Shown here: piece by piece, positions 1 through 60,341 of the stretch
Layout of the letters: the number at the start of each line of letters is the position of its first letter
Numbering within the stretch: the stretch's first letter is position 1
NCBI GenBank assembly: GCA_023269675.1
Contig: JAHFSX010000020.1
Location: forward strand, 6,550 to 70,549
Direction: 5' to 3'
Source of the DNA: Verrucomicrobiota bacterium
Lineage (GTDB): Bacteria > Verrucomicrobiota > Kiritimatiellia > RFP12 > UBA1067
Length of the DNA stretch: 64,000 bases
The notes under the pieces: model-generated
What the model was told of the DNA's origin: nothing
Database searches by the model: none
What the model saw: the letters and a program-made list of their open reading frames with translations, nothing else
Made by a program: the position numbers and the translations under genes

Positions 1-237
1 CATGATTGTTGTATGCGATGCAAGTTGCTCTTGAACTTGCTCAAACGCTCCGATTTGTCTGTGAAACTCTCCAATAAACTCAGCCCCAAAATCGGGATAT
101 GGATATGAAAGAACGCCCGATATTTCGTCAATGCGACAGGGGACGTTGGACAGAGATACAGACAACCCTTGAAAGTTGCCTCGAAGTGTTCCAAGAGTCG
201 TCGACTGCCATTTCCGTTTTTCAAATAATCCGAACAT
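1..237 (-). CDS. Hypothetical protein, N-terminal 79 codons only (runs off left edge)
   Basis: Own translation of minus strand: ATG at 237-235, open to position 1 (MFGLFEKRKWQSTTLGTLRGNFQGLSVSL...). Absent from ORF track because there is no stop in the window. Lies in a low-GC block. Confidence 0.35.
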   Translation of the reverse strand, partial: MFGLFEKRKWQSTTLGTLRGNFQGLSVSLSNVPCRIDEISGVLSYPYPDFGAEFIGEFHRQIGAFEQVQEQLASHTTIM

Positions 238-275
238 TGTTCTTATCCCTAACGTTGGTGGTGGGGGACGGCGCG

Positions 276-785
276 TCAGCGACGTTCCTCTCCAGCATCT
301 GGTTCGCTATTTGTTGTGTTCGGTCTTAGTTGTCGGTGTTCTCTCTCTAATCGGGCTTTGAGCGTGTATGCCTCATCTCGGGGGTATTTGCCTGTCAAAG
401 GGGTGTGCCAGAATCTGCCAGACGCATGCCGAGGGTTCCCCGTAATGTCATCTCGATGGTATGAATGCGTCAATTTAGAAGCGACATTTGTACCTACAAA
501 TATAGCAGCAGCGACAATACCTCTCAGCAACCATGGGTGACCCCGAAACACCCACGGCAGACTTGCAGTTAGAACGCCAGTGGTAACAATAACGCTCAGC
601 GGTGTACCTCCTTCATCGCATTTGTGCGAACCACACATGAACATGGTGAACGCGGTGAGGGTGAACAGCATGACTGAACTTACGGTCAATGCCATTAATC
701 CAGACGACCGCTGAATATGCGATGTCGCAACGACCAAAATGAAACTGGTCCAAAGGATGAGTAACATTATAAAGAACATTGGCAT
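276..785 (-). CDS. Hypothetical integral membrane protein (about 4 TM helices)
   Basis: 169-aa ORF with hydrophobic stretches MFFIMLLILWTSFILVVA, LMALTVSSVMLFTLTAFTMFM, VIVTTGVLTASLPWVF and IVAAAIFVGTNVA. Same strand and low-GC block as its neighbours. Confidence 0.5.
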   Translation of the reverse strand: MPMFFIMLLILWTSFILVVATSHIQRSSGLMALTVSSVMLFTLTAFTMFMCGSHKCDEGGTPLSVIVTTGVLTASLPWVFRGHPWLLRGIVAAAIFVGTNVASKLTHSYHRDDITGNPRHASGRFWHTPLTGKYPRDEAYTLKARLEREHRQLRPNTTNSEPDAGEERR

Positions 786-812
786 TTTGAATTTCGATCT
801 TTCAAGTTTTGT

Positions 813-873
813 GGCGAACGTCGGGAATCACCTGTGAGTACTCGAAACAGGTGCATTCCCTTGTTCGCCTTTT
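813..873. other. Long imperfect hairpin between lipoprotein and membrane-protein genes
   Basis: GGCGAAC-gtc-GGGAATCACCTGT-11 nt-ACAGGTGCATTCCC-tt-GTTCGCC, followed by TTTT on the + strand. Confidence 0.4.
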
Positions 874-915
874 GGTTGCTCTATTGTTGGACATGTCTCA
901 CTGTTTGGGCAGAAA

Positions 916-1326
916 CTACTCTCCATCGCTCGCTTGATTCGATACCGCGTTTGTCGCCGGGGTGAAGAAACGGGTCAAATCTTTCTCTGAAGCATCCAAA
1001 AGATACCGAACGTCTGGAATATCGAGGAGTCCGTTTTCGTTTTGCCAGACAGATTGCTCCGGCGATCGTCTCAAAAGGACGCGCCCATTCCACGTGGCTT
1101 CCCAGTGATTCGGGATGTTGTGCTCAATCTCCACGAAGGCTGTGACATACTCGTTCGTTCCGCGTTTGAATAGTGCAAGATCGCGAATGTTGTATACTCT
1201 AACACCCCACTTGCCAAGAATGATCCTCTCTACAGAGGGGGCAAGTTTGACGCAGCTCCGTTGATAAGGCGTCGTCTCGCATCCAGTCAGGATGACGATA
1301 AACAGCATTGCCAGCAGTTGTTTCAT
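916..1326 (-). CDS. Hypothetical lipoprotein
   Basis: 136 aa. N-terminus MKQLLAMLFIVILTGC is a signal peptide with lipobox L-T-G-C. GAGGA sits 6 nt upstream of the ATG. Confidence 0.7.
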   Translation of the reverse strand: MKQLLAMLFIVILTGCETTPYQRSCVKLAPSVERIILGKWGVRVYNIRDLALFKRGTNEYVTAFVEIEHNIPNHWEATWNGRVLLRRSPEQSVWQNENGLLDIPDVRYLLDASEKDLTRFFTPATNAVSNQASDGE

Positions 1327-2133
1327 TCCTTGTCCTCAAAATGGGGCGAACGTTTTCTGGCTGGCTGAGCCAATTGCTGGCTACTGGATCGACCATGCAT
1401 CGACTTTTTCACATATCGGTTCACAAATCAAGTCGTATATGATGCGCGGCATCATGTCCTGACACAATTCATGCTGTTTCCCTATATCAGGGACCTGCGG
1501 CCTAACATGAGACCGGGACGGCCCCGGCTTCGCGGATACGCTCAGCCGGGGCCGTTTTGCATGCTGCGCATGGTGCGCCCCGCGCGTCCCTTCGGGGATC
1601 GGCACAGGCTTTTCGCATTCCGCTCAAAACCCCCGTCACCAAGGCCGGCACGATACACCGCCGTGTCCGCCTCCTCAGCCGCTCCCGGAACCCGACGCCG
1701 CGCCGGTTGCAGCGGTCACGCCAACGCTTCGGCTACTCGCGCCGGGCGGGTACGCCCTTTGTCATGCCCGTTGCCGACGGCGCGCCTGATCGGCAGGCGT
1801 CCGGTCATCCGTTCCTCCTGCCCGGACGCTTCCCCGTTCCCCAGGGTCCCGTCCGCGCCCTCACCGTCCTGTCTGCAATCTCGTGGCTTACAACGCAACT
1901 GCCCTGTCCTTTAGCCATCATCGCGAATACACAGGCGAGGATGATGGCGAAAGGAAGGGCAGCGTTATGAGTCAGCCACTTTACAGATTGCAGAGCAGGG
2001 CCGGTTTGAGTTCGGCGTCCACCGCGGCGGGTGCCGCGAGTGAGGAATCCGGACTCAGTCAGAGCAGACGTTTTGTCACACCTTCCCTGCCCCCGGCTCC
2101 ATCGTCGCCGCCATCCCCCGCTTTCCCTCTCCC

Positions 2134-2160
2134 ATCATGTGAATCATGTAAATCATGTCA
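2134..2160 (+). repeat. Three perfect tandem 9-mers ATCATGTNA upstream of the first gene of the + operon
   Basis: ATCATGTGA ATCATGTAA ATCATGTCA. The last copy ends 25 nt before the ATG at 2186. Confidence 0.9.
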
Positions 2161-2185
2161 AATAACCCCAGAAAGGACCGCCACC

Positions 2186-2473
2186 ATGAACAGCTACGCC
2201 GAAACCACCCTGCGCGCCCTCGCCGCACAGACCCGCCGCACACCCTACGAGATCCAGACCCTTCTGGCGCTCATCGCCCAGCGCGACGCCGAGACCGTCC
2301 CCGAAGGCCGCAAATACGCCCTCGCCAACGGAGGAGAGCCCGCGACCGAAGCGGAACTGACCTACCTCGCCCGCCTCTGCCGCAACTGCCCGCCCATCCC
2401 CGTTGACCGCCCGCCCGATCCGGCCGACTTCAACGACTGGGAAGCCCGCTGCCCCCACGCCGACCACCTCTGA
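2186..2473 (+). CDS. Hypothetical small protein (95 aa)
   Basis: Internal ATG of ORF 1883..2473, preceded by cAGAAAGGaCCGCCaccATG, the same SD context as downstream genes. Third-position GC becomes very high only from 2186 onward. Confidence 0.65.
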   Translation: MNSYAETTLRALAAQTRRTPYEIQTLLALIAQRDAETVPEGRKYALANGGEPATEAELTYLARLCRNCPPIPVDRPPDPADFNDWEARCPHADHL

Positions 2474-2479
2474 CACCCA

Positions 2480-2520
2480 GCGCCCGCCCGTGGGCCAGGT
2501 ACGCGGGCAGAAAGGCCACC
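2480..2520 (+). repeat. Intercistronic hairpin+SD unit, copy R1
   Basis: GCGCCCGCCCGTGGGCcaggtACGCGGGCAGAAAGGCCACC-ATG. Stem GCCCGC/GCGGGC. Starts 6 nt after the upstream TGA. Confidence 0.85.
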
Positions 2521-2724
2521 ATGAACACCATGCTCACCACCCTCGGAGCGCAAGCCGAATTCACCCAGACATGGAACGCCCTGCAGGCTTGGCTGGAGGA
2601 AGTCAACATGCTCGCCCACCGGCACCACCCGAACCGGACCCAAACGCTGGAAGCCGTCAGCATCTCCAAGCACCTGCTCGACAAGCTGGGCAACCAGATC
2701 GACCAAGCCATCACCGCCGACTGA
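2521..2724 (+). CDS. Hypothetical small protein (67 aa)
   Basis: ORF track. High GC3. Preceded by R1 SD. Confidence 0.7.
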   Translation: MNTMLTTLGAQAEFTQTWNALQAWLEEVNMLAHRHHPNRTQTLEAVSISKHLLDKLGNQIDQAITAD

Positions 2725-2728
2725 TCCC

Positions 2729-2770
2729 GGCGCCCGCCCGTGGGCATCGTTCGCGGGCAGAAAGGCCGCC
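2729..2770 (+). repeat. Intercistronic hairpin+SD unit, copy R2
   Basis: GGCGCCCGCCCGTGGGCatcgtTCGCGGGCAGAAAGGCCGCC-ATG. Confidence 0.85.
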
Positions 2771-3157
2771 ATGAAAAAGAGACAGCACACCGTCACCCTG
2801 CCGCCCGCCGAGCCCGAGATCCCCGCCGTCGAACTCGAATCCGCGACGACCCAGCCCGACCGGCACGAGACCGCCACCCGCGAGGAAGCCATGCTGATCG
2901 CCCTCGACTTCGTGCGCAGCTACGCCAACCACTGGGAACAGCCCGCCGCCGAGATCATCACCACCTTCGCGCAGACGGAAGGCGGATACTGCGGCACCGG
3001 CGTCAGCTACGCCTACAAACGCCGCGGCTTCTTCGTGGGCACCTTCGTCACCCTCAGCAAACCCGAGGAAATCCCCGGCGTGTTTTTCTTCCCGTGGGCC
3101 GAAGTCAAAGCCGCCGCCCTCACCGGAGCCGTCCAAGGCGAATTCAACCTCAGGTGA
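2771..3157 (+). CDS. Hypothetical protein (128 aa)
   Basis: ORF track. High GC3. Its first ~17 codons are duplicated at 4583. Confidence 0.7.
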   Translation: MKKRQHTVTLPPAEPEIPAVELESATTQPDRHETATREEAMLIALDFVRSYANHWEQPAAEIITTFAQTEGGYCGTGVSYAYKRRGFFVGTFVTLSKPEEIPGVFFFPWAEVKAAALTGAVQGEFNLR

Positions 3158-3159
3158 CT

Positions 3160-3191
3160 GAGCGCCCGCCCCCGGGCAGACCGGAGCCGCC
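3160..3191 (+). repeat. Intercistronic hairpin+SD unit, shortened variant R3
   Basis: GAGCGCCCGCCCCCGGGCAGACCGGAGCCGCC-ATG. Stem GCCCG/CGGGC. Confidence 0.7.
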
Positions 3192-3737
3192 ATGAAACAC
3201 ACCAACCAAGAGCAAAAGGCGATCGAAGCCGCACGCGCCGCCGAGGATCTTCCCGACGCCGAATATGACGCGATCCGCAAGACCCCAAGCCAACAGCGCA
3301 CCATCCCCCAGCGCCGCGCCCTGCTGGCAAGCGACCTGAAACGCGCCGGCCAGACGTTCGAGGACCGGGAACGCTCCAACGACCTTTACCGCCACTACCT
3401 GAAGACCGGCGACCGCGCCGAGGCCCGCTGGCATGCCCCTTCCCCGCTCCTGACCTCGACCGCCGCGATCCGCCGCGAACTGGTGGAAGCCTGGAAAGAC
3501 CTGACCCAGTTCGACGCTATGCCCTTCGCCCCCCACGTCAGCCATGAACCCAAACGCTGGCTCAAGTCCGAACGCTTTCACCGCCTCATGGAGATCCAGC
3601 GCGAGATCGAGCGCCAAGGCGGAAAAGTGCGGTATGTCCAACGCACCACCCGACAGGAAGCCATCTACGCCCGCATCATCGCTAGCGACCAACCCAAGAA
3701 CAAACACGAACCCCAGCAGATACCGCTGGGCATCTGA
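3192..3737 (+). CDS. Hypothetical protein (181 aa)
   Basis: ORF track. High GC3. Operon context. Confidence 0.7.
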   Translation: MKHTNQEQKAIEAARAAEDLPDAEYDAIRKTPSQQRTIPQRRALLASDLKRAGQTFEDRERSNDLYRHYLKTGDRAEARWHAPSPLLTSTAAIRRELVEAWKDLTQFDAMPFAPHVSHEPKRWLKSERFHRLMEIQREIERQGGKVRYVQRTTRQEAIYARIIASDQPKNKHEPQQIPLGI

Positions 3738-3749
3738 AAGGAAACGACC

Positions 3750-3944
3750 ATGAACGCGATCATCAGTTATTACTCCTACAGTGAGGAAGGACTGAAAAAC
3801 GGGTCCTTCGCCAGCCGCTCGAAATACGGCCTCGGCCTGTTCACCCTGGGCGACTTCGTGGGCATGATCGAGACCGTGCCCGCAGGCTGGACCCAATACG
3901 ACACGGCCACCGCCCAGAGCCTCATCCCCGATTGCTGCCACTGA
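3750..3944 (+). CDS. Hypothetical small protein (64 aa)
   Basis: ORF track. GAAAGGAAACGACC-ATG SD context 12 nt after the previous stop. Confidence 0.6.
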   Translation: MNAIISYYSYSEEGLKNGSFASRSKYGLGLFTLGDFVGMIETVPAGWTQYDTATAQSLIPDCCH

Positions 3945-3949
3945 AAACC

Positions 3950-3980
3950 GACGCCCGCCCGTGGGCATCGTACGCGGGCC
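3950..3980 (+). repeat. Intercistronic hairpin unit R5 (no intact downstream gene)
   Basis: GACGCCCGCCCGTGGGCatcgtACGCGGGC, then a divergent sequence and a C10 tract. Confidence 0.8.
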
Positions 3981-4010
3981 GTCCCGTTATGTCCGTTCAT
4001 CCCCCCCCCC

Positions 4011-4040
4011 AAAAATCCGGCGCGCCCGCGGGGGCGCGCC
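4011..4040 (-). terminator. Rho-independent terminator of the Cys-rich gene
   Basis: GGCGCGCCC-gcgg-GGGCGCGCC 9-bp GC stem, followed on the minus strand by GGATTTTT. Confidence 0.65.
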
Positions 4041-4095
4041 GATCAACCCCGCCGCTCGTCGCGCTAACGTCTCGCGCCGGGTCCCGGCAAACGAT

Positions 4096-4332
4096 TCAAA
4101 GCCCGTGTTTTTTGTAAAGCTCAAGCCGCGTGGGGCACTTGCAGTAACGGGCGCCTCCGAAGGACTCCCTGTAAGGACACCGCGAGCCGGCCGGGCATTT
4201 GATGAAAAGGAGCTCCTTTCCGACATAATAATCGACCGTGCAGATGCATTTCCCGTCGCCCTTAAGGCACGCGAAATCCTTGTCACATCGCGTCGTCGCC
4301 CGCAAAGCCTGTTCGCTCACCTCGATGGCCAT
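4096..4332 (-). CDS. Small cysteine-rich protein (78 aa, 8 Cys), probably metal-binding
   Basis: MAIEVSEQALRATTRCDKDFACLKGDGKCICTVDYYVGKELLFIKCPAGSRCPYRESFGGARYCKCPTRLELYKKHGL. Has an SD-like GGGGGTG, plus its own promoter and terminator. Confidence 0.7.
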   Translation of the reverse strand: MAIEVSEQALRATTRCDKDFACLKGDGKCICTVDYYVGKELLFIKCPAGSRCPYRESFGGARYCKCPTRLELYKKHGL

Positions 4333-4434
4333 AAATCACCCCCGTCAATCACGAGTACAACAACATGTCTGGGCATTGATGTATCTGCAAACCAGAGGCT
4401 CAAAAAACCTGATTTAACCATATGTTTGGCATGT

Positions 4435-4462
4435 ATTATGCGGGGGGGGGTAAAATTGTCAA
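4435..4462 (-). promoter_or_regulatory. Sigma-70-like promoter TTGACA-N16-CATAAT with a C9 tract in the spacer
   Basis: Minus strand reads TTGACA(4462-4457)-attttaCCCCCCCCCg-CATAAT(4440-4435), about 100 nt upstream of the ATG at 4332. Confidence 0.6.
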
Positions 4463-4538
4463 CGGCTTATTTTATACGCCAAGTGCCTGATCGACAAGAA
4501 AGGCGAGTCGCGCGACAACGCCGCGCGGCAGCAAAGCC

Positions 4539-4582
4539 CCGCGCCCGACCGTGGGCCGGGTACGCGGGCAGATCGGACCGCC
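4539..4582 (+). repeat. Intercistronic hairpin+SD unit, copy R6
   Basis: CCGCGCCCGACCGTGGGCcgggtACGCGGGCAGATCGGACCGCC-ATG. Confidence 0.8.
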
Positions 4583-4738
4583 ATGAAAAAGAGACAGCAC
4601 ACCGTCACCCTGCCGGCAGTCGAGCCCGAGCCCGCCCTTTCTTTTCGCCCCCCAAAACGGTGCGCCTGCAGGGGTTCGCCATACTCGTTTGGATGGCTTA
4701 TAAACAGGTTATGCGCACACACACCAGAAGTAAACTAG
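4583..4738 (+). pseudogene. Truncated duplicate of the 5' end of gene 2771..3157
   Basis: ATGAAAAAGAGACAGCACACCGTCACCCTGCCG is identical to 2771-2803 (MKKRQHTVTLP). It diverges after ~17 codons and stops after 51 codons. Confidence 0.6.
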
Positions 4739-4814
4739 TTCTTGCCGGAAGACTGACCTCGAGTAAGTTTGTCTTCAACACCGGTATCTCTTAGGTTATG
4801 TTAAGTAATAGAAA

Positions 4815-5231
4815 TCAAGAAAAGGTGAACAATGCGTTCGAACTGCTTCCACAGATTTTCAACTCCAAGTTTTTAAGAAAATTCATTCCCAAGATCATAG
4901 AGTTGTTTGCCATTTTTACATTAGCAGGAGGGCCAAACTGCACACTTCCATTAACCCAATATATCTTTTTATGGCCAACGAACCTGCTGACAGCAAAAAG
5001 CACATCAATGCTATTCGACCCATTATTAGGCGATGGTAAACCGACCACGCCAGCCCATTGTGTCTGAATATGGTTATACGGAGTACAAGAAAAAAAAACC
5101 GTTTCTTGAAAGTAACTAACGGCAACAGGTTTTGACGTGTTATATGTGCTTGGAAGACAGGCGATACTCAATCGTATAGGAGCAATAGTATATTCGCTAG
5201 TCCTTAAATTCACACTCAACTTTTTAAACAT
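4815..5231 (-). CDS. Hypothetical protein (138 aa), second gene of low-GC cassette; possible degenerate retropepsin-like fold
   Basis: Start chosen at MFKKLSV because of GGAGAGAACG-ATG. The C-terminal motif ILGMNFL resembles the (I/L)LG(M/R)(D/N)(F/L)L motif of clan AA aspartic peptidases. No D(T/S)G triplet is seen. Confidence 0.55.
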   Translation of the reverse strand: MFKKLSVNLRTSEYTIAPIRLSIACLPSTYNTSKPVAVSYFQETVFFSCTPYNHIQTQWAGVVGLPSPNNGSNSIDVLFAVSRFVGHKKIYWVNGSVQFGPPANVKMANNSMILGMNFLKNLELKICGSSSNALFTFS

Positions 5232-5275
5232 CGTTCTCTCCGATTCCCGCCACGCCAACACCCCAGAATAATACC

Positions 5276-6232
5276 TTAAAGACCAGCATTCGTTACGTAA
5301 CAATCTTTGGTTGGTTTCAATTCTGTTCTGTCCAACTTAATAAATAATTGGCTCCAATCGGGCGCAGATTCTATGATACCCGCTTCCGTTACTGCTACGA
5401 CACTACCCTGATATTTTTTACATATGTCTTTCGTCCGATTACGTTGCCACCATAAAGCACCCATATCCGCAGGAGAGTGTTGGTCAAAAAAGACTCCATT
5501 AAATGATGAGTCAGTTCTCCATTCATCAAAGTCACTCAGGGAAGTCGCTATGTGACCGTCTGCCATTTGTTTAATCTGTGATGCGTAAAAAAGCGCTATC
5601 GATTTTCGCGAGGAAACAAAAACGCGACGTCTGATAGCTTGTTGTTCTTGGTGGTCTTCTTCGAAAGACAACTCGGCCGTCATTTTCTCGTCTTTAGTAA
5701 AGATTACCGATACAAAGTGTAAGGGCTCTCGGTCGCCGATGTTGATAACAACGCCTTTATCTGGGTGAGATAGCAATTTTTCTGCAAACGGATTGCCAGC
5801 AGCATCTTTCATGATCCTGGTCGAAGATGTAACAAGAAATCTGAATGAAGGTTCACTCAGACGTTCTTCGATCAGTTGAAGCGCCCTCTTTGTAAGAAAA
5901 ACGTCCTTGTGGAATGAGCCCACGTTTAAGAACAGAAAACTGTTTGGCTTGGAAAGACAATTTTCAACGTAGGCGGTTCTCTCTTCAGGGCCTTCCAGTT
6001 CAATCCTCAACTCATTTCCTTCAGCGAGTTCATTCGATCGAAGCTTGGACTCAATCTTATCCCAGTCGCTATCTGTTTTTGGAGAAAGATTGATTTTCCG
6101 ACGTTCAAAAAAGACGCTATATTTTTGTGCCGATGGCTCGGTAACCCTTTTTGACGAACTTCGCTGAAGCACGCGCACAAAGCCTTCTAGCTTCTGGCGA
6201 TAACAATCGATCTCCATCATGCGTAACTCCAT
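5276..6232 (-). CDS. Hypothetical protein (318 aa), first gene of low-GC cassette
   Basis: ORF track. Strong SD GAGGAGGGAGTC-ATG. I recognise no family. Confidence 0.7.
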   Translation of the reverse strand: MELRMMEIDCYRQKLEGFVRVLQRSSSKRVTEPSAQKYSVFFERRKINLSPKTDSDWDKIESKLRSNELAEGNELRIELEGPEERTAYVENCLSKPNSFLFLNVGSFHKDVFLTKRALQLIEERLSEPSFRFLVTSSTRIMKDAAGNPFAEKLLSHPDKGVVINIGDREPLHFVSVIFTKDEKMTAELSFEEDHQEQQAIRRRVFVSSRKSIALFYASQIKQMADGHIATSLSDFDEWRTDSSFNGVFFDQHSPADMGALWWQRNRTKDICKKYQGSVVAVTEAGIIESAPDWSQLFIKLDRTELKPTKDCYVTNAGL

Positions 6233-6310
6233 GACTCCCTCCTCTCGAATTCCAGTCGCAACTATCCTAGCTGTCCTGCCGAAGAGGCAACGTCATCTTC
6301 ATGCGGGGAT

Positions 6311-6340
6311 AGAATATCCCCCCCCGTGCTTCGAATGCAA
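6311..6340 (-). promoter_or_regulatory. Sigma-70-like promoter TTGCAT-N18-TATTCT with a G8 tract in the spacer
   Basis: Minus strand reads TTTTTTTTg-TTGCAT(6340-6335)-tcgaagcacGGGGGGGGa-TATTCT(6316-6311), about 80 nt upstream of the ATG at 6232. Confidence 0.55.
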
Positions 6341-6780
6341 CAAAAAAAACCAGCTTCATAATGTTGCCCATAGATGGAAACGTGCTTATGAAGAAGTGTG
6401 TGCCGGAAATAGTGGCATTGTTGTGTAAGTCTTGTGTGGTGAGTGTTGCGGATCAACAATTGTACTGTTTAAGGCATAACAGTAGTCATAATCTCTCTCA
6501 ACATGCCGTCCCTTTCCAGACATCCTCCGCCTTATCGGCAGGCGTTATTGAGAATCTCCGATTGACAACAGAACCGTAGCAAACTTTACTCCCCTGCTTC
6601 AAGCGTATATTTTGGTGTTTTTTCCCCAGGGATTGATACCGAATTGAATAGGTGAAGTTCCTATAGGTCGGAGGGGTGGCATACAAATCTGTTGATCTGA
6701 GTAGAGGGTGATTAGGGGGACGTATCACGGAAAAACGGACAAACAGGTTAGCTAATCCGTCCTCTCCCCCCCCCATACCG

Positions 6781-6814
6781 CACTAACGCAATAACGCACT
6801 AACGAACTTCTTCC
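6781..6814 (-). repeat. AT-rich octamer array at gene 3' end (island copy 1)
   Basis: + strand CACTAACG CAATAACG CACTAACG AACTTCTTCC. Encodes the tail KKFVSALLR* of the ASCH gene. Confidence 0.85.
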
Positions 6815-7247
6815 TCACTTCCCCGTCCACCGCCCACACGCCGAGAAATCCCTTGGCCGCGACGCCCCGCGCGCACAACACCGGCCGTTCCAGCTCCCAC
6901 GCCACATCGCCCATGTACCACGGGTCGGCCGACGCGGTCAGCGCCGAAACCACATGGATACCGCACACCACCTGCCCGCACCAGGCGCGGCACTCGTCAT
7001 ACCCCGGAAAGCGCACCGCCGCGCCGAACCGGTCCGCCACCCACAGGCTGCCCGCGCACCAGTCAGAAAAGCTGAGGTTGTTGGAAGCGTGCACGAGGTA
7101 GAGGCCGGGCGGCACGCGGAAACTCCGGTTCTCCACCGTCTTCAGCCCCGCCCGGATCAGCAGGCCCCAATGCGCCTTCACCGTGAACGCCCGTAGTCCT
7201 TTCCGCTCGAAGTTCGGCGTCCGGCGTTGAATGTCCGACGTTCGCAT
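6783..7247 (-). CDS. ASCH-domain protein (154 aa)
   Basis: LRAFTVKAHWGLLIRAGLKTVENRSFRVPPGLYLVHAS matches the ASCH pattern (xxSIRQPWAxLIxxGxKxIENRSW...IHAS). Start set at MRTSD with GGAGGGAGAGCAA-ATG. Confidence 0.75.
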   Translation of the reverse strand: MRTSDIQRRTPNFERKGLRAFTVKAHWGLLIRAGLKTVENRSFRVPPGLYLVHASNNLSFSDWCAGSLWVADRFGAAVRFPGYDECRAWCGQVVCGIHVVSALTASADPWYMGDVAWELERPVLCARGVAAKGFLGVWAVDGEVRKKFVSALLR

Positions 7248-7497
7248 TTGCTCTCCCTCCGTCCCCAGCCGTTTGAATGTTGCCGATTGCCGATTGCTGA
7301 TTGCTGTCCTCCGTCCTCTGTCCTCCGTCTTCACTCCCCATCCCGTCCGACTGATCGACGCCGCGCCAGTCCTTTTCCCAACAAACGCACGCCGCATCAC
7401 TCGCCTCTATCAACCTTTCGCCGCGCGGCAGGCACATCCCCGCCGGCCACATCGCCCCGCACGAGCAGAACGACCCGCACTCGCGGCAAAGTTTCAT
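7063..7497 (-). CDS. Possible small Cys-rich ORF (MKLCRECGSFCSCG...); extent uncertain
   Basis: ATG lies 13 nt after the stop of 7511..7864. The N-terminal 45 aa look protein-like. The ORF then crosses heptamer repeats and overlaps the ASCH gene out of frame by 185 nt. Confidence 0.25.
   Translation of the reverse strand: MKLCRECGSFCSCGAMWPAGMCLPRGERLIEASDAACVCWEKDWRGVDQSDGMGSEDGGQRTEDSNQQSAIGNIQTAGDGGRANANVGHSTPDAELRAERTTGVHGEGALGPADPGGAEDGGEPEFPRAARPLPRARFQQPQLF
7282..7333. repeat. Two adjacent tandem heptamer arrays
   Basis: GCCGATT GCCGATT GCTGATT, then GCTGTCCTCC GTCCTCT GTCCTCC GTCTTCA. The minus strand reads GGAGGAC-like SD repeats. Confidence 0.8.
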
Positions 7498-7510
7498 AAC
7501 GGCACCGTCA

Positions 7511-7864
7511 CTATGAAATCGAGTCGAAGAAGTCGGCTGACCGCTTGGCCTCTTTCATCTTTTTGCCGCCGAGCGGCATGAGACCGCTGTTCTGCAAAAG
7601 CCAGACAAGGCCGACATTCAACTCTTGCGTATAGAAGTGCGCGAAAGCTTCGCCACGCTCCGCCGCCCGCTCTTCAAATTTCCGGTTACAGGATTCTTTG
7701 CAGGTAATGAATGGTTCAAACGTGTCTCCAACCTTGTCGCCGCCGGTAGGGGGGAACCACACTATATCGGCTTCTTTCGCGTCCGTGACGTGCCTGCCGC
7801 ACACATCGCATACGGCCGCCAGACCGGTTTTCCCGGACGCAAAAAACATCATCTTGATTCCCAT
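7511..7864 (-). CDS. Hypothetical protein (117 aa)
   Basis: ORF track. High GC3. Contains a CDVCG...CKESC motif. Confidence 0.6.
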   Translation of the reverse strand: MGIKMMFFASGKTGLAAVCDVCGRHVTDAKEADIVWFPPTGGDKVGDTFEPFITCKESCNRKFEERAAERGEAFAHFYTQELNVGLVWLLQNSGLMPLGGKKMKEAKRSADFFDSIS

Positions 7865-7893
7865 AACTCACATCGTTCCTTTCATTCTGAGCT

Positions 7894-8301
7894 TCACTCA
7901 GGCCGCTCCACATAGTAGTCAACGCCCTCGCGCAGACTACAGACCACTGGTGGCAACCGGACCGACTCGCAAAACAGCACCACAGCCGCCACGCACCGCC
8001 GCAACACCTCATGATCCTGATGCTCTCCCTCGACGGTCGCCACCACGCTTGCGCGTGTGGCAAACAGCCACGCGTCCGGAATTGCTACACCTGCCGCCTG
8101 TGCCCGATACAGGTTGTGCGGCCGTGTGCAGAGATCCAGCCAGCGCGCCACCGGTTCATCGACCTCCCGCGCGCAGACCGCCGCCCGCTCATAAAGCTCC
8201 CGGTCCATCCGCACTTTCGTGTGCCGCTCCACCCGTCGCACGGCCAGCGCCCGTTCGATCATTTCGCGCGAAGTGATCCCCTTGAGTCTTTTCGCCTTCA
8301 A
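7894..8301 (-). CDS. Hypothetical protein (135 aa, TTG start)
   Basis: ORF track. GGAGGACGGCGAAT-TTG. Confidence 0.6.
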   Translation of the reverse strand: MKAKRLKGITSREMIERALAVRRVERHTKVRMDRELYERAAVCAREVDEPVARWLDLCTRPHNLYRAQAAGVAIPDAWLFATRASVVATVEGEHQDHEVLRRCVAAVVLFCESVRLPPVVCSLREGVDYYVERPE

Positions 8302-8346
8302 ATTCGCCGTCCTCCGGCCTCAGTCTTCTGACCTCATCCCTCTCCC

Positions 8347-8386
8347 CACTAATGCACTAATGAACTGACGAACTAATGAACTTCTC
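8347..8386 (-). repeat. AT-rich octamer array at gene 3' end (island copy 2)
   Basis: CACTAATG CACTAATG AACTGACG AACTAATG AACTTCTC. The stop of 8373..8600 lies inside it. Confidence 0.9.
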
Positions 8387-8600
8387 TCGCCTTCCCCTGC
8401 AGATCCACCGCAAACCGGCCCTTGGCCAGCGTCAGAAAAACGTCCGGCTCGCAGTTGCAGACCTGACCGGAATTCACGGCGCACCAGAAATCATGCTGCA
8501 CATGACAGTCGCTTTTCCGGTCGAGGCAAGAAACGTCGAACACCTGCCGAAAACCGAGGACCATCCGTTCCTGATACGATAACCGCGTTTTAACAGACAT
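8373..8600 (-). CDS. Hypothetical small protein (75 aa)
   Basis: ORF track. GAAAGGAGTACGGCG-ATG. Ends ...EVH*. Confidence 0.6.
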   Translation of the reverse strand: MSVKTRLSYQERMVLGFRQVFDVSCLDRKSDCHVQHDFWCAVNSGQVCNCEPDVFLTLAKGRFAVDLQGKAREVH

Positions 8601-8643
8601 CGCCGTACTCCTTTCGCTGTCTTCCGTCCTCCGTCCCTAATCC

Positions 8644-8683
8644 CACTAATGCACTAATGAACTAACGGACTAAGGAACTTCCC
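8644..8683 (-). repeat. AT-rich octamer array at gene 3' end (island copy 3)
   Basis: CACTAATG CACTAATG AACTAACG GACTAAGG AACTTCCC. Confidence 0.9.
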
Positions 8684-8804
8684 ACTTCTCTTTCTCCGGA
8701 TCGTCCGCCTCGACTCCGGTCTCGCCTCTGAACGCCCACCATGTCCGTCCCGCCGCTACGGCGATCAAGCACACGAGCCACACGAAATCGGCAACAGTTC
8801 TCAC
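8670..8804 (-). CDS. Possible 44-aa single-TM peptide (GTG start)
   Basis: Own translation: VRTVADFVWLVCLIAVAAGRTWWAFRGETGVEADDPEKEKWEVP*, with AAGGAG 11 nt upstream. Preferred over the Arg-rich track ORF 8662..8856. Confidence 0.35.
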   Translation of the reverse strand: MRTVADFVWLVCLIAVAAGRTWWAFRGETGVEADDPEKEKWEVP

Positions 8805-8853
8805 GGGCGTTCAATCTCCTTCGCGTCTTAGCGCCTTCGCGATAGACACCTCC

Positions 8854-8893
8854 CACTAATGCACCAATGAACTAACGAACTAATGAACTTCTC
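8854..8893 (-). repeat. AT-rich octamer array at gene 3' end (island copy 4)
   Basis: CACTAATG CACCAATG AACTAACG AACTAATG AACTTCTC. Confidence 0.9.
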
Positions 8894-9227
8894 CCCCCCG
8901 TTTCAAATAACACATGTGCCAGATCGGATGATAATTACCGGCCGCCTCGTCGCCGTCCAGCAGCACCACCAGCCGCCCGGAACGGCCGCCCGTGATCACG
9001 CCCGGCCGGCCGTCGAACTCGACCCGCCGCCCGACCGTCGCCGGCACGCCGTAGGCGTTCCGGATATATTCGAGACCCTGCGCGGCGACCTGCGCGCGTT
9101 CACACGTTTTGCAGGTCACCTCCATATCCGAGCCGGGGACAACCACCTGGACGCCGGCCCGCGCGCGTCCGCAGAGCGTCATGCCCGCAGGGCCCGCGGC
9201 ATGGTTCACAAAACGGTAACCGCTCAT
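8880..9227 (-). CDS. Hypothetical protein (115 aa)
   Basis: Internal start MSGYRF, chosen for GGAGGTAATT-ATG. Ends ...GGEVH* inside the octamer array. Confidence 0.6.
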   Translation of the reverse strand: MSGYRFVNHAAGPAGMTLCGRARAGVQVVVPGSDMEVTCKTCERAQVAAQGLEYIRNAYGVPATVGRRVEFDGRPGVITGGRSGRLVVLLDGDEAAGNYHPIWHMCYLKRGGEVH

Positions 9228-9361
9228 AATTACCTCCTGCAGATCGGGTAAACCGCCGCGCAGGGCCGGATCGGACCTGTGAGACCGGTCCCCGCGCGGC
9301 TTTCCGGAACATCCGGAAATCAACTGCCGTCCAAGGCGTTCACCACTCTCCCGCATTGCCG

Positions 9362-9393
9362 CACTAATGAACTATGACACTAACGCCCTTCTC
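9362..9393 (-). repeat. AT-rich octamer array at gene 3' end (island copy 5, degenerate)
   Basis: CACTAATG AACTATGA CACTAACG CCCTTCTC. Confidence 0.75.
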
Positions 9394-9658
9394 CCCCGTC
9401 TCCGGCGCTCGGGACAGCCGGACCGCGCGGCAGCGGCAACGAGGAGGGGAGGGGAGCCGGCGCCTCATTCTCCAGCCATTGCCTGACATCCGCGGTGCAG
9501 AACACGACCACGGACGACCGGCTTTCCGGCACCGGCTTGCGCGCCCGGATGGCCCCGGCCCGCGCCAGTTCCAGCAGCCGGTTGCGCGGCAGCCCGTACA
9601 GCGCCGTCACGCACTCCGCCGTCCCCCACAGCGGCTCCATCTGTATCACGACGGTCAT
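9380..9658 (-). CDS. Excisionase/AlpA-like helix-turn-helix DNA-binding protein
   Basis: PLWGTAECVTALYGLPRNRLLELARAGAIRARK...VRQWLE fits the HTH_17/Xis pattern. Its start overlaps the upstream RHH stop (ATGA). Confidence 0.6.
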   Translation of the reverse strand: MTVVIQMEPLWGTAECVTALYGLPRNRLLELARAGAIRARKPVPESRSSVVVFCTADVRQWLENEAPAPLPSSLPLPRGPAVPSAGDGGEGR

Positions 9659-9846
9659 TCTGGCCCCGCGATCTGATCGATGAGATCACGCCGGGATACA
9701 AATTCGGTCAAGATGAACTCGAATTGCCCGGACCGCGACCTTTTCGCCACGAAGCGAACGTCATCAAGTGCCTTAACCAACTTCGTCGGCAAAGACACAG
9801 TGACCTGTGATTTTTCTTCACGTACCCGTTTGGTTGTCTCACTCAT
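9655..9846 (-). CDS. Ribbon-helix-helix (CopG/Arc-like) protein
   Basis: 63 aa. SQVTVSLPTKLVKALDDV is the typical RHH beta-strand/helix signature. Confidence 0.65.
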   Translation of the reverse strand: MSETTKRVREEKSQVTVSLPTKLVKALDDVRFVAKRSRSGQFEFILTEFVSRRDLIDQIAGPE

Positions 9847-9862
9847 TGGTCTAGTGTAAGTA

Positions 9863-9941
9863 ACTGTGATACAGTAATCAAATAAAATAGTTTTACCTTT
9901 TTTCTAAATACAGTACCCCAACTTCCATTAAATTTAGTACA
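9863..9941. promoter_or_regulatory. AT-rich divergent control region with repeated TACAGTA/TAGTACA boxes
   Basis: ACTGT-gat-ACAGT palindrome (9863-9875). TACAGTA at 9870-9876 and 9909-9915. TAGTACAAT at 9935-9943 resembles a -10 for the + gene. Confidence 0.45.
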
Positions 9942-9961
9942 ATAGCGCCCTCGAGGTATCT

Positions 9962-10195
9962 ATGAGCACAAAAGCAAAAAAGTCAAATACGACCCAAAGG
10001 TCGAAAGATTCCACCCAGGTCAGCATCACGTTGCCCACGGAGCTGCTCGAAAAAATCGATGCCATCTGCGCGGCCAAGGTCAGAACCAGATCCAACCTGA
10101 TGGCGATCATACTGGCACAGGCGCTCGCTCAGCCAGCAGCGCCGTCCGCCTCGGCCCCCGCGGCCGGCAACGTGGGCACCGGCGTTGGCAATTAG
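9962..10195 (+). CDS. Ribbon-helix-helix (CopG-like) protein
   Basis: 77 aa. TQVSITLPTELLEKIDAI parallels the RHH motif of 9655..9846. GAGGT SD. Confidence 0.65.
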   Translation: MSTKAKKSNTTQRSKDSTQVSITLPTELLEKIDAICAAKVRTRSNLMAIILAQALAQPAAPSASAPAAGNVGTGVGN

Positions 10196-10539
10196 TGCCT
10201 TTCAGCGCAATGTTTACACGGAACGACACTAAGTTGCTTCCGCGCGAGATCGCGGAAACAGCGTGCTGTTCCGTCCGCCAAGGAGCGGTCCGAGCGATCC
10301 CTTGTGGCTATGCGAGGCACGTTTCCCAAAACGGTCCGGGTAAAACGCCGGTCACCGGGCCCCGGCCAGGCCTCCCCGGCCGAAGTTATTTGTCGCGGGT
10401 TTTTTACCCGCGCTACCCCTCAAAACGGTATGGCAAAGGTATGACAAACAGGCTTCAAATATATCAAATCGGTACTGAAAAACGTCACTTTTTGACGCTT
10501 TTTCATCAAAAAAACCTCATTTTTGGTCAAAAACGCGCC

Positions 10540-10572
10540 TTGTCGCGGGTTCGAATCCCGTCCTCCCCGCCA
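10540..10572 (+). other. Orphan tRNA/tmRNA 3'-end fragment (T-arm, acceptor 3' strand, CCA); putative attR
   Basis: GCGGG-TTCGAAT-CCCGT-CCTCCCC-G-CCA. The same architecture as a tmRNA/tRNA 3' end. No complementary GGGGAGG 5' acceptor strand or other tRNA arms upstream. Confidence 0.7.
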
Positions 10573-10586
10573 TTCTTTTTTTAGAA

Positions 10587-10618
10587 CAGGTCACCTTCAC
10601 CGGTGGCCTGTTTTTTTT
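10587..10618 (+). terminator. Rho-independent terminator after the tRNA-like fragment
   Basis: CAGGTCACC-ttcacc-GGTGGCCTG followed by T8. Confidence 0.8.
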
Positions 10619-10638
10619 GTGGCGCGCGCCGGAAGTTT

Positions 10639-10668
10639 TTGACCGGCGTCGCGGGTTGCGGGTATACT
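10639..10668 (+). promoter_or_regulatory. Sigma-70-like promoter TTGACC-N18-TATACT (uppP)
   Basis: TTGACCGGCG...GTATACTG, 15 nt upstream of the ATG at 10683. Confidence 0.5.
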
Positions 10669-10682
10669 GCACGCCACGCAAC

Positions 10683-11474
10683 ATGACTTTACTTCAAACC
10701 ACCATCATCGCCGTTGTCGAGGGCTTGACGGAATTCTTGCCCGTGTCGTCCACCGGACACATGATCATCGCCCAGAGGCTCATGGGCGTCGACGGCACGC
10801 TCGACGTGGTCAAAGCGTTCACGGTCAACATCCAGTTCGGGGCGATCCTGTCGGTCGTCGTGCTGTACCGGCGGCGCTTTTTTCAGACCTGGGATTTTTA
10901 CTGGAAACTGCTGGTCGCCTTCGTGCCGGCCGCGGTGATCGGGTTCCTGTTGAGCGGTTTCATCGACCGCCTGCTGGACAACGTGACGGTGGTGGCGCTG
11001 ATGCTGGTGGCGGGCGGCGTGTTCATGCTGTTTGTGGACCAGTGGTTCACCCGTCCCGCAGAGGACCAGGCCGTGGACTGGAAGCGGGCGCTGAAGATCG
11101 GCTGCTTCCAGTGCGTGGCCATGATCCCGGGCGTCTCGCGCTCCATGTCCACGATCGTGGGCGGGATGTCCACCGGGCTCTCGCGGCAGAACGCGGCAGA
11201 ATTCTCGTTCTTTCTGGCCGTGCCGACCATGGCGGCCGCGGCGGGGTATAAGCTGCTGAAAATCATGACTGACCCGGCCCTGAGCGCCACGGTGTCGGAC
11301 AACCTGATGACCTTGCTGATCGGCAATGGGGTGGCCTTCCTGGTGGCCCTGGCGGCGATCCGGTGCTTCATCGGCTTCCTTGCCCGACACGGCTTCAAGG
11401 CCTTCGGCTACTACCGCATTGTGGTCGGCGGCGTGATTCTGGCCCTGGTGCTGCTGGGCAAGATTCAGCGCTGA
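10683..11474 (+). CDS. uppP: Undecaprenyl-diphosphate phosphatase
   Basis: MTLLQTTIIAVVEGLTEFLPVSSTGHMII... and ...PGVSRSMSTIVGG are BacA/UppP signatures. Multi-TM. Confidence 0.9.
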   Translation: MTLLQTTIIAVVEGLTEFLPVSSTGHMIIAQRLMGVDGTLDVVKAFTVNIQFGAILSVVVLYRRRFFQTWDFYWKLLVAFVPAAVIGFLLSGFIDRLLDNVTVVALMLVAGGVFMLFVDQWFTRPAEDQAVDWKRALKIGCFQCVAMIPGVSRSMSTIVGGMSTGLSRQNAAEFSFFLAVPTMAAAAGYKLLKIMTDPALSATVSDNLMTLLIGNGVAFLVALAAIRCFIGFLARHGFKAFGYYRIVVGGVILALVLLGKIQR

Positions 11475-11519
11475 CCGAAGGGTTTTTCGCGCGGCCGCCG
11501 ACGGAGCCAAAACTCCACA

Positions 11520-11549
11520 TTGACCGGCGGGGGTGGAAAGCTCTATACT
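11520..11549 (+). promoter_or_regulatory. Sigma-70-like promoter TTGACC-N18-TATACT (rpoZ-smpB)
   Basis: TTGACCGGCG...CTATACTG. Same hexamers as the uppP promoter. Confidence 0.5.
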
Positions 11550-11577
11550 GTCTCGCTTAACCCTTGGAGGCATTTCT

Positions 11578-11823
11578 GTGAATGTTGAACTGATTGAGAA
11601 GGCGAGAGTCCGGGTCCCCAGCGTTCCGGTGCTCGTGAATCTTGTTTCGAAACGCGTGCGTCAGCTCAATATGGGTGAGAGGCCTTACGTGAAACCGTTG
11701 TCGGCCGATGAGGACAAGTGCGACATCGCGCTGCGCGAGATCGCCGACGGTCTGCTCATTTCCGAGGTTGATTTCGGCGCCATCGCGCGGGCCGAGCAGG
11801 CGCATTCGCGCTGGTCGCTGTAA
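11578..11823 (+). CDS. rpoZ: DNA-directed RNA polymerase subunit omega
   Basis: GTG start after GGAGGCATTTCT. VLVNLVSKRVRQLNMGERPYV...DIALREIADGLL fits the RpoZ pattern. Confidence 0.75.
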   Translation: MNVELIEKARVRVPSVPVLVNLVSKRVRQLNMGERPYVKPLSADEDKCDIALREIADGLLISEVDFGAIARAEQAHSRWSL

Positions 11824-11859
11824 TGTGATTCTGCGCGGCAGGCGCAGGGCGGGCGGGTC

Positions 11860-12342
11860 ATGAGCGAGGAGAGCAAAAAACGCAACGGCGGCAATCTGAC
11901 GGTCAACCGCAGGGCGCTGCACGATTATTTTGTTCTCGAGAAGTACGAGGCCGGCATCGAGCTGGTGGGTACCGAGGTGAAGGTGGTGCGTAACGGCGAG
12001 GCCGGGTTGACCGGCTCCTACGCCCAGGTGAAGAACGGACAGCTCTACCTGAATCAGGTGATGATCCCGCCTTACGCCTTCGGCAACCGCTTCAACCATG
12101 ACTCGCTGCGGACGCGGCGCCTGCTGATGCACACGCGGGAGATCCGCAAGCTGCAGGCGCAGTCGGAGCAGAAGGGGCTGTCGCTGATACCGTTGAGGAT
12201 GTACCTGACTCCAAAAGGTCTGGTCAAAGTGGAGATCGGGGTCTGCCGGGGCAAAGCCCAGGAAGACAAACGCGAGACCATCAAGCGGAGGGACGCGGAC
12301 CTTGAGGCCCGCCGGGCGATTGTGACACACTATAAAGGGTGA
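11860..12342 (+). CDS. smpB: SsrA-binding protein
   Basis: NRRALHDYFVLEKYEAGIELVGTEVKVVR...RTRRLLMHTREIRKL...GLSLIPLRMYL is canonical SmpB. Confidence 0.93.
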   Translation: MSEESKKRNGGNLTVNRRALHDYFVLEKYEAGIELVGTEVKVVRNGEAGLTGSYAQVKNGQLYLNQVMIPPYAFGNRFNHDSLRTRRLLMHTREIRKLQAQSEQKGLSLIPLRMYLTPKGLVKVEIGVCRGKAQEDKRETIKRRDADLEARRAIVTHYKG

Positions 12343-60218: not shown

Positions 60219-60341
60219 GGGTTAGTTCATGAGTTCATTAGTGCGAAGAGGTGTAAGCGCCCGCCGTGCGAGGCTGGATTTCCCTGGAAGCAACTCATGA
60301 ACTCATGAACTAGCGCACTAAGGCACTAATGAACTTCTTCC
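60219..60341. repeat. Inverted pair of CACTAATG-type octamer arrays flanking a 46-nt GC-rich core
   Basis: GGTTAGTTCATGAGTTCATTAGTGCG ... CAACTCATGAACTCATGAACTAGCGCACTAAGGCACTAATGAACTTCTTCC. Same motif as the island arrays. Confidence 0.85.

Follow-up and report, generated by a model that had tools for sequence, protein, structure and literature searches.

A hairpin and Shine-Dalgarno unit repeated between small accessory genes of paralogous prophages in a bacterium of the Kiritimatiellia

GC-rich hairpins that lie between cistrons or upstream of the ribosome-binding site act as stabilisers in bacterial and phage mRNAs; they do not depend on a conserved loop and are not known to be common to unrelated phages. 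The attC sites of integrons span 57-141 bp, carry paired core sites and are found beside the integron integrase and attI. Here we analyse a unit, named T1, made up of a GC-rich hairpin followed by a Shine-Dalgarno (SD) sequence, which is repeated between consecutive small genes of a prophage in contig JAHFSX010000020.1 (here C1) of a Verrucomicrobiota bacterium of the class Kiritimatiellia (assembly GCA_023269675.1). The window is the whole stretch that was analysed, 64,000 nucleotides corresponding to positions 6550-70549 of C1, and positions below are those of the window unless another contig or locus is named. The closest described systems belong to phages. Promoter early stem-loops (PeSLs) of T4-type phages are composed of a stop codon, a promoter, a stem-loop, an SD and an ATG, lie between orphan genes, have proven promoter and terminator activity, and recombine into mini-circles (PMC2839356, PMC4122927). 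In cluster K mycobacteriophages, the start-associated sequence (SAS) has a 13-bp consensus, 5'-GGGATAGGAGCCC, located 3-7 bp before the start codon, and about half of the SAS sites have an inverted repeat with a variable spacer just upstream (extended SAS, ESAS), whose arms are of 17 bp and whose departures lend no support to RNA pairing, so that DNA-binding sites were favoured (PMC3203893).

T1 bears some likeness to each of these. As with the stabiliser stem-loops, it is a GC hairpin at intercistronic positions or upstream of a ribosome-binding site, but its loop is conserved and it is widely shared. As with attC, a folded site follows every small gene, which has no promoter, and precedes the SD of the next gene in an array of orphan cassettes; on the other hand, the T1 core is of 27 nt, has none of the attC core sites and adjoins no integron-type integrase, and T1 exchange looks homologous, unlike that of attC cassettes. 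T1 and the PeSLs alike occupy the stop-to-start gap, with a GC stem-loop in which G-U pairs are included and which is followed by an SD and an ATG; copies of either element separate small orphan genes of a plastic region, at points of insertion, deletion or replacement. The PeSL is of ca. 100 bp and has a sigma-70-type early promoter and a proven terminator (PMC2839356, PMC4122927), whereas T1 is of ca. 45 nt with a conserved loop and no recognisable promoter or terminator, and is carried by temperate phages of bacteria of the Planctomycetes-Verrucomicrobia-Chlamydiae type rather than by T4-type myoviruses. With the SAS and ESAS sites, T1 has in common a conserved asymmetric sequence that includes the SD and stands a few bases before the start of a non-structural gene, in many copies that all point one way. 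The SAS consensus is, however, absent from T1, the changes in the T1 stem are compensatory, and the cluster K mycobacteriophages are another phage group.

Copies of the unit in prophages and in uncultured viruses

A scan of the window with CGCCCGNCCGTGGGC-N6-CGCGGGC, in which up to three mismatches were allowed, rendered four sites, all of them exact and on the + strand (2481, 2731, 3952 and 4542). The expectation by chance is 0.06 sites, and four or more were obtained in none of 100 shuffles. The same four copies were grouped as one 50-nt family in repeat detection, and a fifth, shortened copy, GCCCG-CCCC-CGGGC (3164-3177, +), is of a short type that recurs in viral contigs. The repeat that a preliminary description, made from the sequence of the window alone, had pointed out is therefore real, with four full copies, far above chance, and a shortened one. 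That description placed all five copies after a TGA, which holds for four of them, at distances of 4-8 nt, the copy at 4542 having no preceding stop codon. The tail that it gave for the consensus, AGAAAGGCC(A/G)CC-ATG, is found at copies 2480 and 2730 only; the copy at 3952 has neither SD nor start, and the one at 4542 reads AGATCGGACCGCC-ATG. The SD context that it had noticed ahead of the first gene, without a hairpin, is present at 2169-2188, as is the truncated gene after the copy at 4542 (2766-2818 and 4578-4630 are 94% identical).

The genome-wide search for the motif that had been suggested rendered 20 copies in the assembly (6.33 Mb, 64.8% GC) at nhmmer E <= 4e-9, the next match having an E of 0.13. 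A covariance model run over the genome gave 21 matches at E <= 1, namely the same 20 and a weak one. The 20 copies are spread over eight contigs, and all of them lie in co-directional modules of small genes belonging to eight paralogous prophages (C1, C25, C29, C45, C46, C62, C66 and C78). When strands are read against the gene order of the module, all 20 share one orientation relative to the genes. A TGA or TAA is found in the preceding 12 nt of 19 of them, and 14 are followed by an SD and an ATG, the remaining six being located at the end of the operon.

The paralogs on C45 and C46 could be traced to a tyrosine integrase adjoining host genes, at different sites. Both prophages also encode methylase and restriction genes, a phage holin and an SU10-type adaptor, and have a gene for a DnaB-like helicase just upstream of the module; a RadC gene is present in one paralog. 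Downstream of the module, variable low-GC genes are followed by convergent phage genes on the minus strand, and the sole integrase found, a Phage_integrase-family gene, is at the far end of the prophage. Joints in DNA contigs that might have represented rearranged forms of the window locus turned out to be paralogous prophage copies instead. No contig from the metatranscriptome of the same sample mapped to the stretch, an outcome that speaks neither for nor against its transcription, and a second run labelled as RNA is probably of DNA. The eight paralogs also share an internally repetitive stretch upstream of the helicase gene (C1:250-1450).

Outside this genome, the core GCCCGCCCGYGGGC-N5/6-YGCGGGC was found in 84 contig stretches of IMG/VR, which represent 75 distinct contexts. 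An SD and a start follow directly in 64 of these, a stop lies 2-12 nt before in 56, and both are present in 47. The flanks are often AT-rich, the GC content of the locus with the motif masked ranging from 0.32 to 0.65, and a subgroup of the viral units has a longer conserved 5' flank following a TAA. Four of five whole viral records contain 4-5 copies each, in one array of 1.4-5 kb on one strand, and the fifth, of 151.6 kb, contains two copies ca. 9.4 kb apart, also on one strand. Three of these records are rated as 100% complete: two with 4-5 copies in an array of 3-4.5 kb, and the 151.6-kb one. The neighbours of the viral units, of which 86 of 132 open reading frames (ORFs) were searched against Pfam, are mostly orphans, with matches including RadC, DUF3560, DUF2786, DUF3846 and YodL, as well as NikA-like, FtsK/SpoIIIE and DNA ligase families, typical of the accessory regions of mobile elements. 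The INPHARED phages and PLSDB plasmids gave no match at E <= 1, in a BLAST search whose low-complexity filter may hide a GC-rich query. T1 is more widespread than was visible in the preliminary description, being a prophage feature common to many uncultured phages.

Of 400 genomes of the class in which the exact pattern was searched for, only two contained convincing copies. One of them, of the same family, has the order RadC, unit, gene1, unit, next gene. In the other (locus L016, G149:C26, minus strand, ca. 1494-1541), the T1 core is inside a spacer of a CRISPR (clustered regularly interspaced short palindromic repeats) array of 33 repeats of 37 nt, where it is number 14 of 32 spacers. This indicates that T1-bearing DNA is a target of CRISPR immunity in this group. 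An exact protospacer of this spacer was not present among the loci that we collected.

With regard to described families, no Rfam match to the unit was found at E <= 1 in window positions 1-12000, nor at E <= 10 in window positions 1800-4700 and four viral loci, and a literature search for four T1 14-mers did not find them. A further string, at 60256, had been taken for a relative of T1; it belongs to an unrelated repeat, has no 3' arm and was missed by both the profile and the covariance model. The sequence CACTAATGAAC occurs 33 times in the genome, including window positions 8354, 8651 and 9361, in the right part of the prophage, and 60323, in the repeat at 60256. Strings related to it occupy some of the stop-to-start gaps in relatives (L035, L037, L075 and L076).

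Fold, loop and stop-to-start slot

RNAalifold on 33 distinct units rendered a 7-bp helix, GCCCGYG/CGCGGGC, that closes a 9-nt loop, GGC-N-U-N-R-U-A, with a conserved CGCC(C) ahead of the helix. This best-supported helix sits 4 nt further inward than the stem drawn in the preliminary description. In the outer register, 97.5% of the cells of the alignment pair, without any change on both sides, and all of 500 shuffles score equally, so that this register was discarded. In the 7-bp helix, 98.3% of the cells pair, compared with 16-64% in slid controls; pair 26-38 is U.G in 23 units and C-G in 10, pair 27-37 is GC in 29, GU in one, AU in two and otherwise in one, and the covariation score was reached by 3 of 500 shuffles. 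A covariance model built from 37 cores and run over 79 viral loci gave 120 matches, corresponding to 96 distinct rows. In these, 99.8% of the cells pair, and changes on both sides are seen at five of the seven pairs (nine cells), a result obtained in none of 500 shuffles. The compensatory changes whose search had been proposed beforehand were thus found in viral variants, with the loop kept. Fully compensated stems in which both loop and flanks are maintained are GCCGGGG/CCCCGGC, GCCGGGA/UCCCGGC and GCCGGA/UCCGGC, all from copies outside the pattern used to fetch sequences. A U.G pair is present in 68 of the 96 rows, where the opposite strand would give A.C.

The loop, which had been described as varying, is conserved at positions 5, 7, 8 and 9. 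The fetch pattern fixes the stem and loop positions 1-3 in most of the 96 rows; the positions free of the pattern are U5 in 67 of 67, R7 in 67 of 67, U8 in 67 of 67 and A9 in 63 of 67. The first base 3' of the stem is A in 91 of the 96 rows and is followed by purines, the sequence after the stem being A plus AGAAAGG or AAGGAGG. The combination of stem covariation and loop conservation is characteristic of folded elements that are recognised by some partner.

Several other candidates were considered and rejected. A pseudoknot in which the loop would pair with the 5' flank was dropped on steric grounds and because there is no variation with which to examine it, and complementarity of the loop to rRNA was dropped because two loop positions vary freely. 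Stop-codon readthrough or recoding, as well as a selenocysteine insertion sequence, were discarded given that both TGA and TAA occur and that the usual gap of 46 nt puts the downstream TGA out of frame. No sigma-70-like promoter was found at the units on the sense strand (window 1800-4800 and L184 2600-6800), with a consensus that may not be that of the hosts. A promoter with its -35 element in the ATCATTTCAACC flank and its -10 element in the loop is unsupported by the scans, and the copies of the window do not have that flank.

A search with an alignment of gene1, the gene that has a T1 unit on each side in the window, rendered 18 loci in genome contigs, three in IMG/VR and 50 in metagenome contigs. 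The 80 related loci that were oriented contain 124 stop-to-start junctions, which fall into two length classes: short junctions of 11-20 nt that contain only an SD, and long junctions of 42-116 nt, in which a few bases separate the stop from a GC hairpin that is in turn followed by an SD and an ATG. Of 60 units from these loci, 46 are at a distance of 5 nt from the stop and eight at a distance of 6 nt. At the 66 gene1 3' ends with enough sequence, T1 is present in 25, another GC hairpin in 37, and none in four. The alternative hairpins form a family, CCG(T/C)A(C/G)-GGGC-NNNN-loop-NNNN-GCCC, that is terminator-like and in some cases has T-runs. In a MAFFT alignment of 39 of them, seven of which are misaligned, 93.3% of the cells pair, changes on both sides are found in 12 cells, and the inner stem covaries (0.161 against 0.081 +/- 0.008 in shuffles, with 0 of 500 reaching it). 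The fact that an alternative family in the same place covaries indicates that the slot downstream of the stop codon is reserved for structure. In one paralog of the genome, gene1 is preceded by the alternative hairpin and followed by T1.

Alternative hairpins at gene ends occur in loci L027-L099, for instance at L040:2746-2787 and L071:1140-1183, and also at C78:13477. Their 5' arm contains a GTA(C/G)-GGGC box, and GTAC-GCGGGC is the 3' arm in T1. Similar GTAG-GGGCGGAC hairpins are present at several host loci of the genome.

Exchange of gene1 and surroundings of the module

The 60 units join at least six upstream and at least nine downstream gene families, and 51 of them touch gene1. The units are more similar to each other (identity 0.91) than are the adjoining gene1 ends (0.79) or the other coding flanks (0.68), unit identity exceeding that of the gene1 end in 89% of 91 comparisons (14 distinct gene-unit pairs). 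A comparison between the prophages on C1 and C46 rendered identities of 0.93 for gene0, 0.98 for the first unit, 0.72 for gene1, 0.98 for the second unit and 0.96 for gene2. In agreement with the possibility, raised in the preliminary description, of a junction at which cassettes are exchanged, gene1 has therefore been replaced exactly between two T1 copies, with flanks that are 93-96% identical. The synonymous divergence (dS) of gene1 is 0.69, 0.54 and 0.76 in three comparisons between allele groups and 0.17 within an allele group, compared with 0.11-0.23 for gene0 and gene2, that is, three to five times lower in the flanking genes, the figures being noisy because gene1 is short. The rise of dS in gene1, which sets in and ends abruptly at the units, speaks for recombinational replacement rather than for fast protein evolution. 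The swap of a gene1 allele between paralogous prophages, bounded by the two units, is directly supported by these data; the recombination presumably took place inside the T1 unit itself.

The positions of the units and of the genes of the module are collected in Table 1. No Pfam or PHROG family was found for any of the five genes, and a PDB profile search with gene1 gave nothing (best E 0.028). They are nevertheless real genes, since the proportion of nonsynonymous changes (pN) is well below that of synonymous changes (pS) between paralogs. The terminal unit, with no SD or start downstream, marks the end of the + strand operon.

Table 1. T1 units and genes of the small-gene module in the window
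Feature	Position	Strand	Details
gene0 start context	2169..2188	+	SD only (CAGAAAGGACCGCCACC-ATG), without hairpin
gene0	2186..2473	+	95 aa, no known family; purifying selection between paralogs
T1 unit 1	2480..2523	+	gene0 TGA 2471-2473 before; 5' flank GCGCCC; helix 2486-2492/2502-2508; loop 2493-2501; SD AGAAAGG 2509-2515; gene1 ATG 2521
gene1	2521..2724	+	67 aa, no known family; T1 unit on each side
T1 unit 2	2730..2773	+	gene1 TGA 2722-2724 before; helix 2736-2742/2752-2758; SD 2759-2765; gene2 ATG 2771 after
gene2	2771..3157	+	128 aa, no known family
Shortened unit	3162..3194	+	gene2 TGA 3155-3157 before; then AGACCGGAGCCGCC and gene3 ATG 3192
gene3	3192..3737	+	181 aa, no known family; 12-nt SD-only junction to gene4
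gene4	3750..3944	+	64 aa; last gene of the module
Terminal T1 unit	3951..3979	+	after gene4 TGA 3942-3944; no SD or start downstream
Displaced T1 unit	4541..4585	+	C-to-A in 5' arm; no preceding stop codon; then AGATCGGACCGCC-ATG and truncated copy of gene2 start (4583-4630)

Some features in the surroundings of the module deserve mention. A stretch of low GC content (window 1-1640, 48-58% GC), whose ORFs belong to no known family, is inserted in this paralog only, where it separates the helicase region from the module. A near-perfect hairpin of ca. 115 nt immediately precedes the module at 1872-1994 (+), with a minimum free energy (MFE) as RNA of -62.7 kcal/mol (z -7.44, equalled by none of 200 shuffles) and no Rfam match. 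It is conserved in 15 distinct relatives with a variable 5' arm and a constant 3' arm, the latter containing GAAAGGAAGGG and an ATG at 1948. This hairpin might control translation, resemble an origin or act as a single-strand promoter. Between the terminal and the displaced units, a C10 run and a G9 run (3996-4014 and 4436-4454) form an inverted pair around a minus-strand gene (4096-4332) for a cysteine-rich protein of 78 aa. The gene has a terminator-like end, formed by a perfect palindrome of G and C together with an A/T run (4017-4042), and the whole may be an inserted cargo cassette. In the paralog on C66 (C66:112684-119600), gene1 is separated by ca. 7 kb of other genes, one of them an ORF of 1069 aa, from a remnant of a gene1 3' end that bears a terminal T1 unit, an arrangement that suggests an insertion of cargo between two units.

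Possible roles of the unit

The reading that we prefer, to which we would give an even chance of being correct, is that T1 acts in cis in the accessory-gene arrays of phages, as a cassette that is both leader and junction, and that it is read in the mRNA. T1 would be present in the mRNA as a stem-loop of the sense strand fused to the ribosome-binding site, and would set, for each cassette, the structural context of translation initiation as well as transcript stability. Its loop would probably be bound by a phage or host factor, in such a way that swappable small genes would be translated or stabilised together, and at the end of the operon T1 would cap the 3' end of the last cistron. As a side effect, the unit of ca. 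45 nt could provide a homology patch for cassette exchange between related phages, because it is near-identical everywhere. The action as RNA, the reading of the loop by a factor and the effect on translation or stability are inferred. In this context, the site of mRNA stabilisation or processing that the preliminary description had contemplated would be plausible, consistent with the covariation of the hairpin and with its location on the sense strand only, whereas the data speak neither for nor against the translational coupling device that it had also put forward.

Several observations weigh against this reading. The fold of T1 is no more stable than that of shuffled sequences (median z -0.29, with none of 29 distinct junctions below -2), the z values of the copies of the window being 0.62, -1.74, -0.21, -0.77 and 0.05. 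The copies at 4542 and 3162 fail to adopt the model helix in the MFE structure given by RNAfold, and a C-to-A change in two copies disrupts the second base pair. Covariation is thin within the phage family of the window itself, where it amounts to one pair in two sequences, and the count over 96 rows leans towards structure because the alignment is model-fitted and most of the rows were fetched with an exact pattern. The high conservation of the T1 sequence could stem from repeated recombination alone. Finally, AGAAAGG is a putative SD, the 3' end of the 16S rRNA not having been found in the assembly.

A tentative extension, which we consider possible though doubtful, is that T1 represents an undescribed cis-regulatory RNA motif, with a dedicated RNA-binding regulator, from the phage or from the host, that would switch the whole array. 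It is rather unlikely, in turn, that T1 is only a linker for recombination at the DNA level, of the kind proposed for the boundary sequences of lambdoid phages and for the PeSLs, and that its hairpin as such does nothing. The unit would then stay identical because phages having it in common can exchange the genes between copies. The replacement of a gene1 allele between two units, with a dS that is higher inside, the many gene families that the unit joins, its higher conservation with respect to the coding flanks, the presence of the same core in phages of very different base composition and the unexceptional MFE of the unit would all fit such a linker. Compensated stems in which the loop is retained are, however, not expected of a mere homology patch, and neither are the strict one-strand orientation and the fixed abutment to the SD.

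An operator in duplex DNA for a phage repressor or other regulator, similar to the stoperators of cluster A mycobacteriophages or to the ESAS as interpreted in their description, that would silence the module in the lysogen appears improbable. It would agree with the strong conservation of the sequence, including loop positions, with the palindromic character of GCCCGCGGGC in those copies that have C at the Y position, with the one-directional, intergenic location of the unit and with the putative small helix-turn-helix- or ribbon-helix-helix-like genes that, as judged by eye, edge some arrays. Nonetheless, the covariation of the stem, with U.G in so many rows, argues for a folded single strand, unrelated hairpin sequences occupy the same slot in relatives, and no regulator gene is common to all the arrays examined.

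The location of the unit, which begins 5-6 nt past the stop codon, together with the terminator-like hairpins, some of them with T-runs, found in the same slot in relatives and the six of 20 copies that close the operon with no gene after them, could also suggest a leaky terminator or attenuator, devoid of a U-tract, placed after each small gene and overridden by phage antitermination. We deem this quite improbable. T1 has the hairpin of an intrinsic terminator but no U-tract, the 8 nt after the stem being purine-rich; no terminator-like site was detected at the units on the sense strand in the same two regions scanned for promoters, and no antiterminator was identified. Lastly, it is highly improbable that T1 is a miniature selfish repeat that inserts between genes bringing a ribosome-binding site, as in repetitive extragenic palindromic or miniature inverted-repeat transposable elements, in spite of a core that is invariant amid unrelated, even AT-rich, flanks and of several copies per genome, since all 20 copies in this 6.3-Mb genome are in prophage modules and none in host DNA, each phage has a single array with its copies in the same orientation, neither target duplications nor terminal repeats were observed, and the stem covaries.

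The accessory regions of phages hold most of the unknown genes directed against host defences, and little is known about the regulation and reshuffling of such regions except in a few model phages. As a compact and recognisable signal, T1 could serve to find arrays of this kind in uncultured phages of Kiritimatiellae, Lentisphaerae and relatives, to delimit individual cassettes, and to test for one common controlling factor. The idea underlying the PeSLs, in which a regulatory cassette is at the same time a linker for recombination, is thereby carried over from lytic phages of the T4 type to temperate ones, whose hosts, in the case of T1, are a little-studied group of bacteria. Moreover, if a dedicated regulator reads the unit, interchangeable early or anti-defence genes would be switched together across the entire array, and a gene newly recombined into the space between two units would fall under this shared control.

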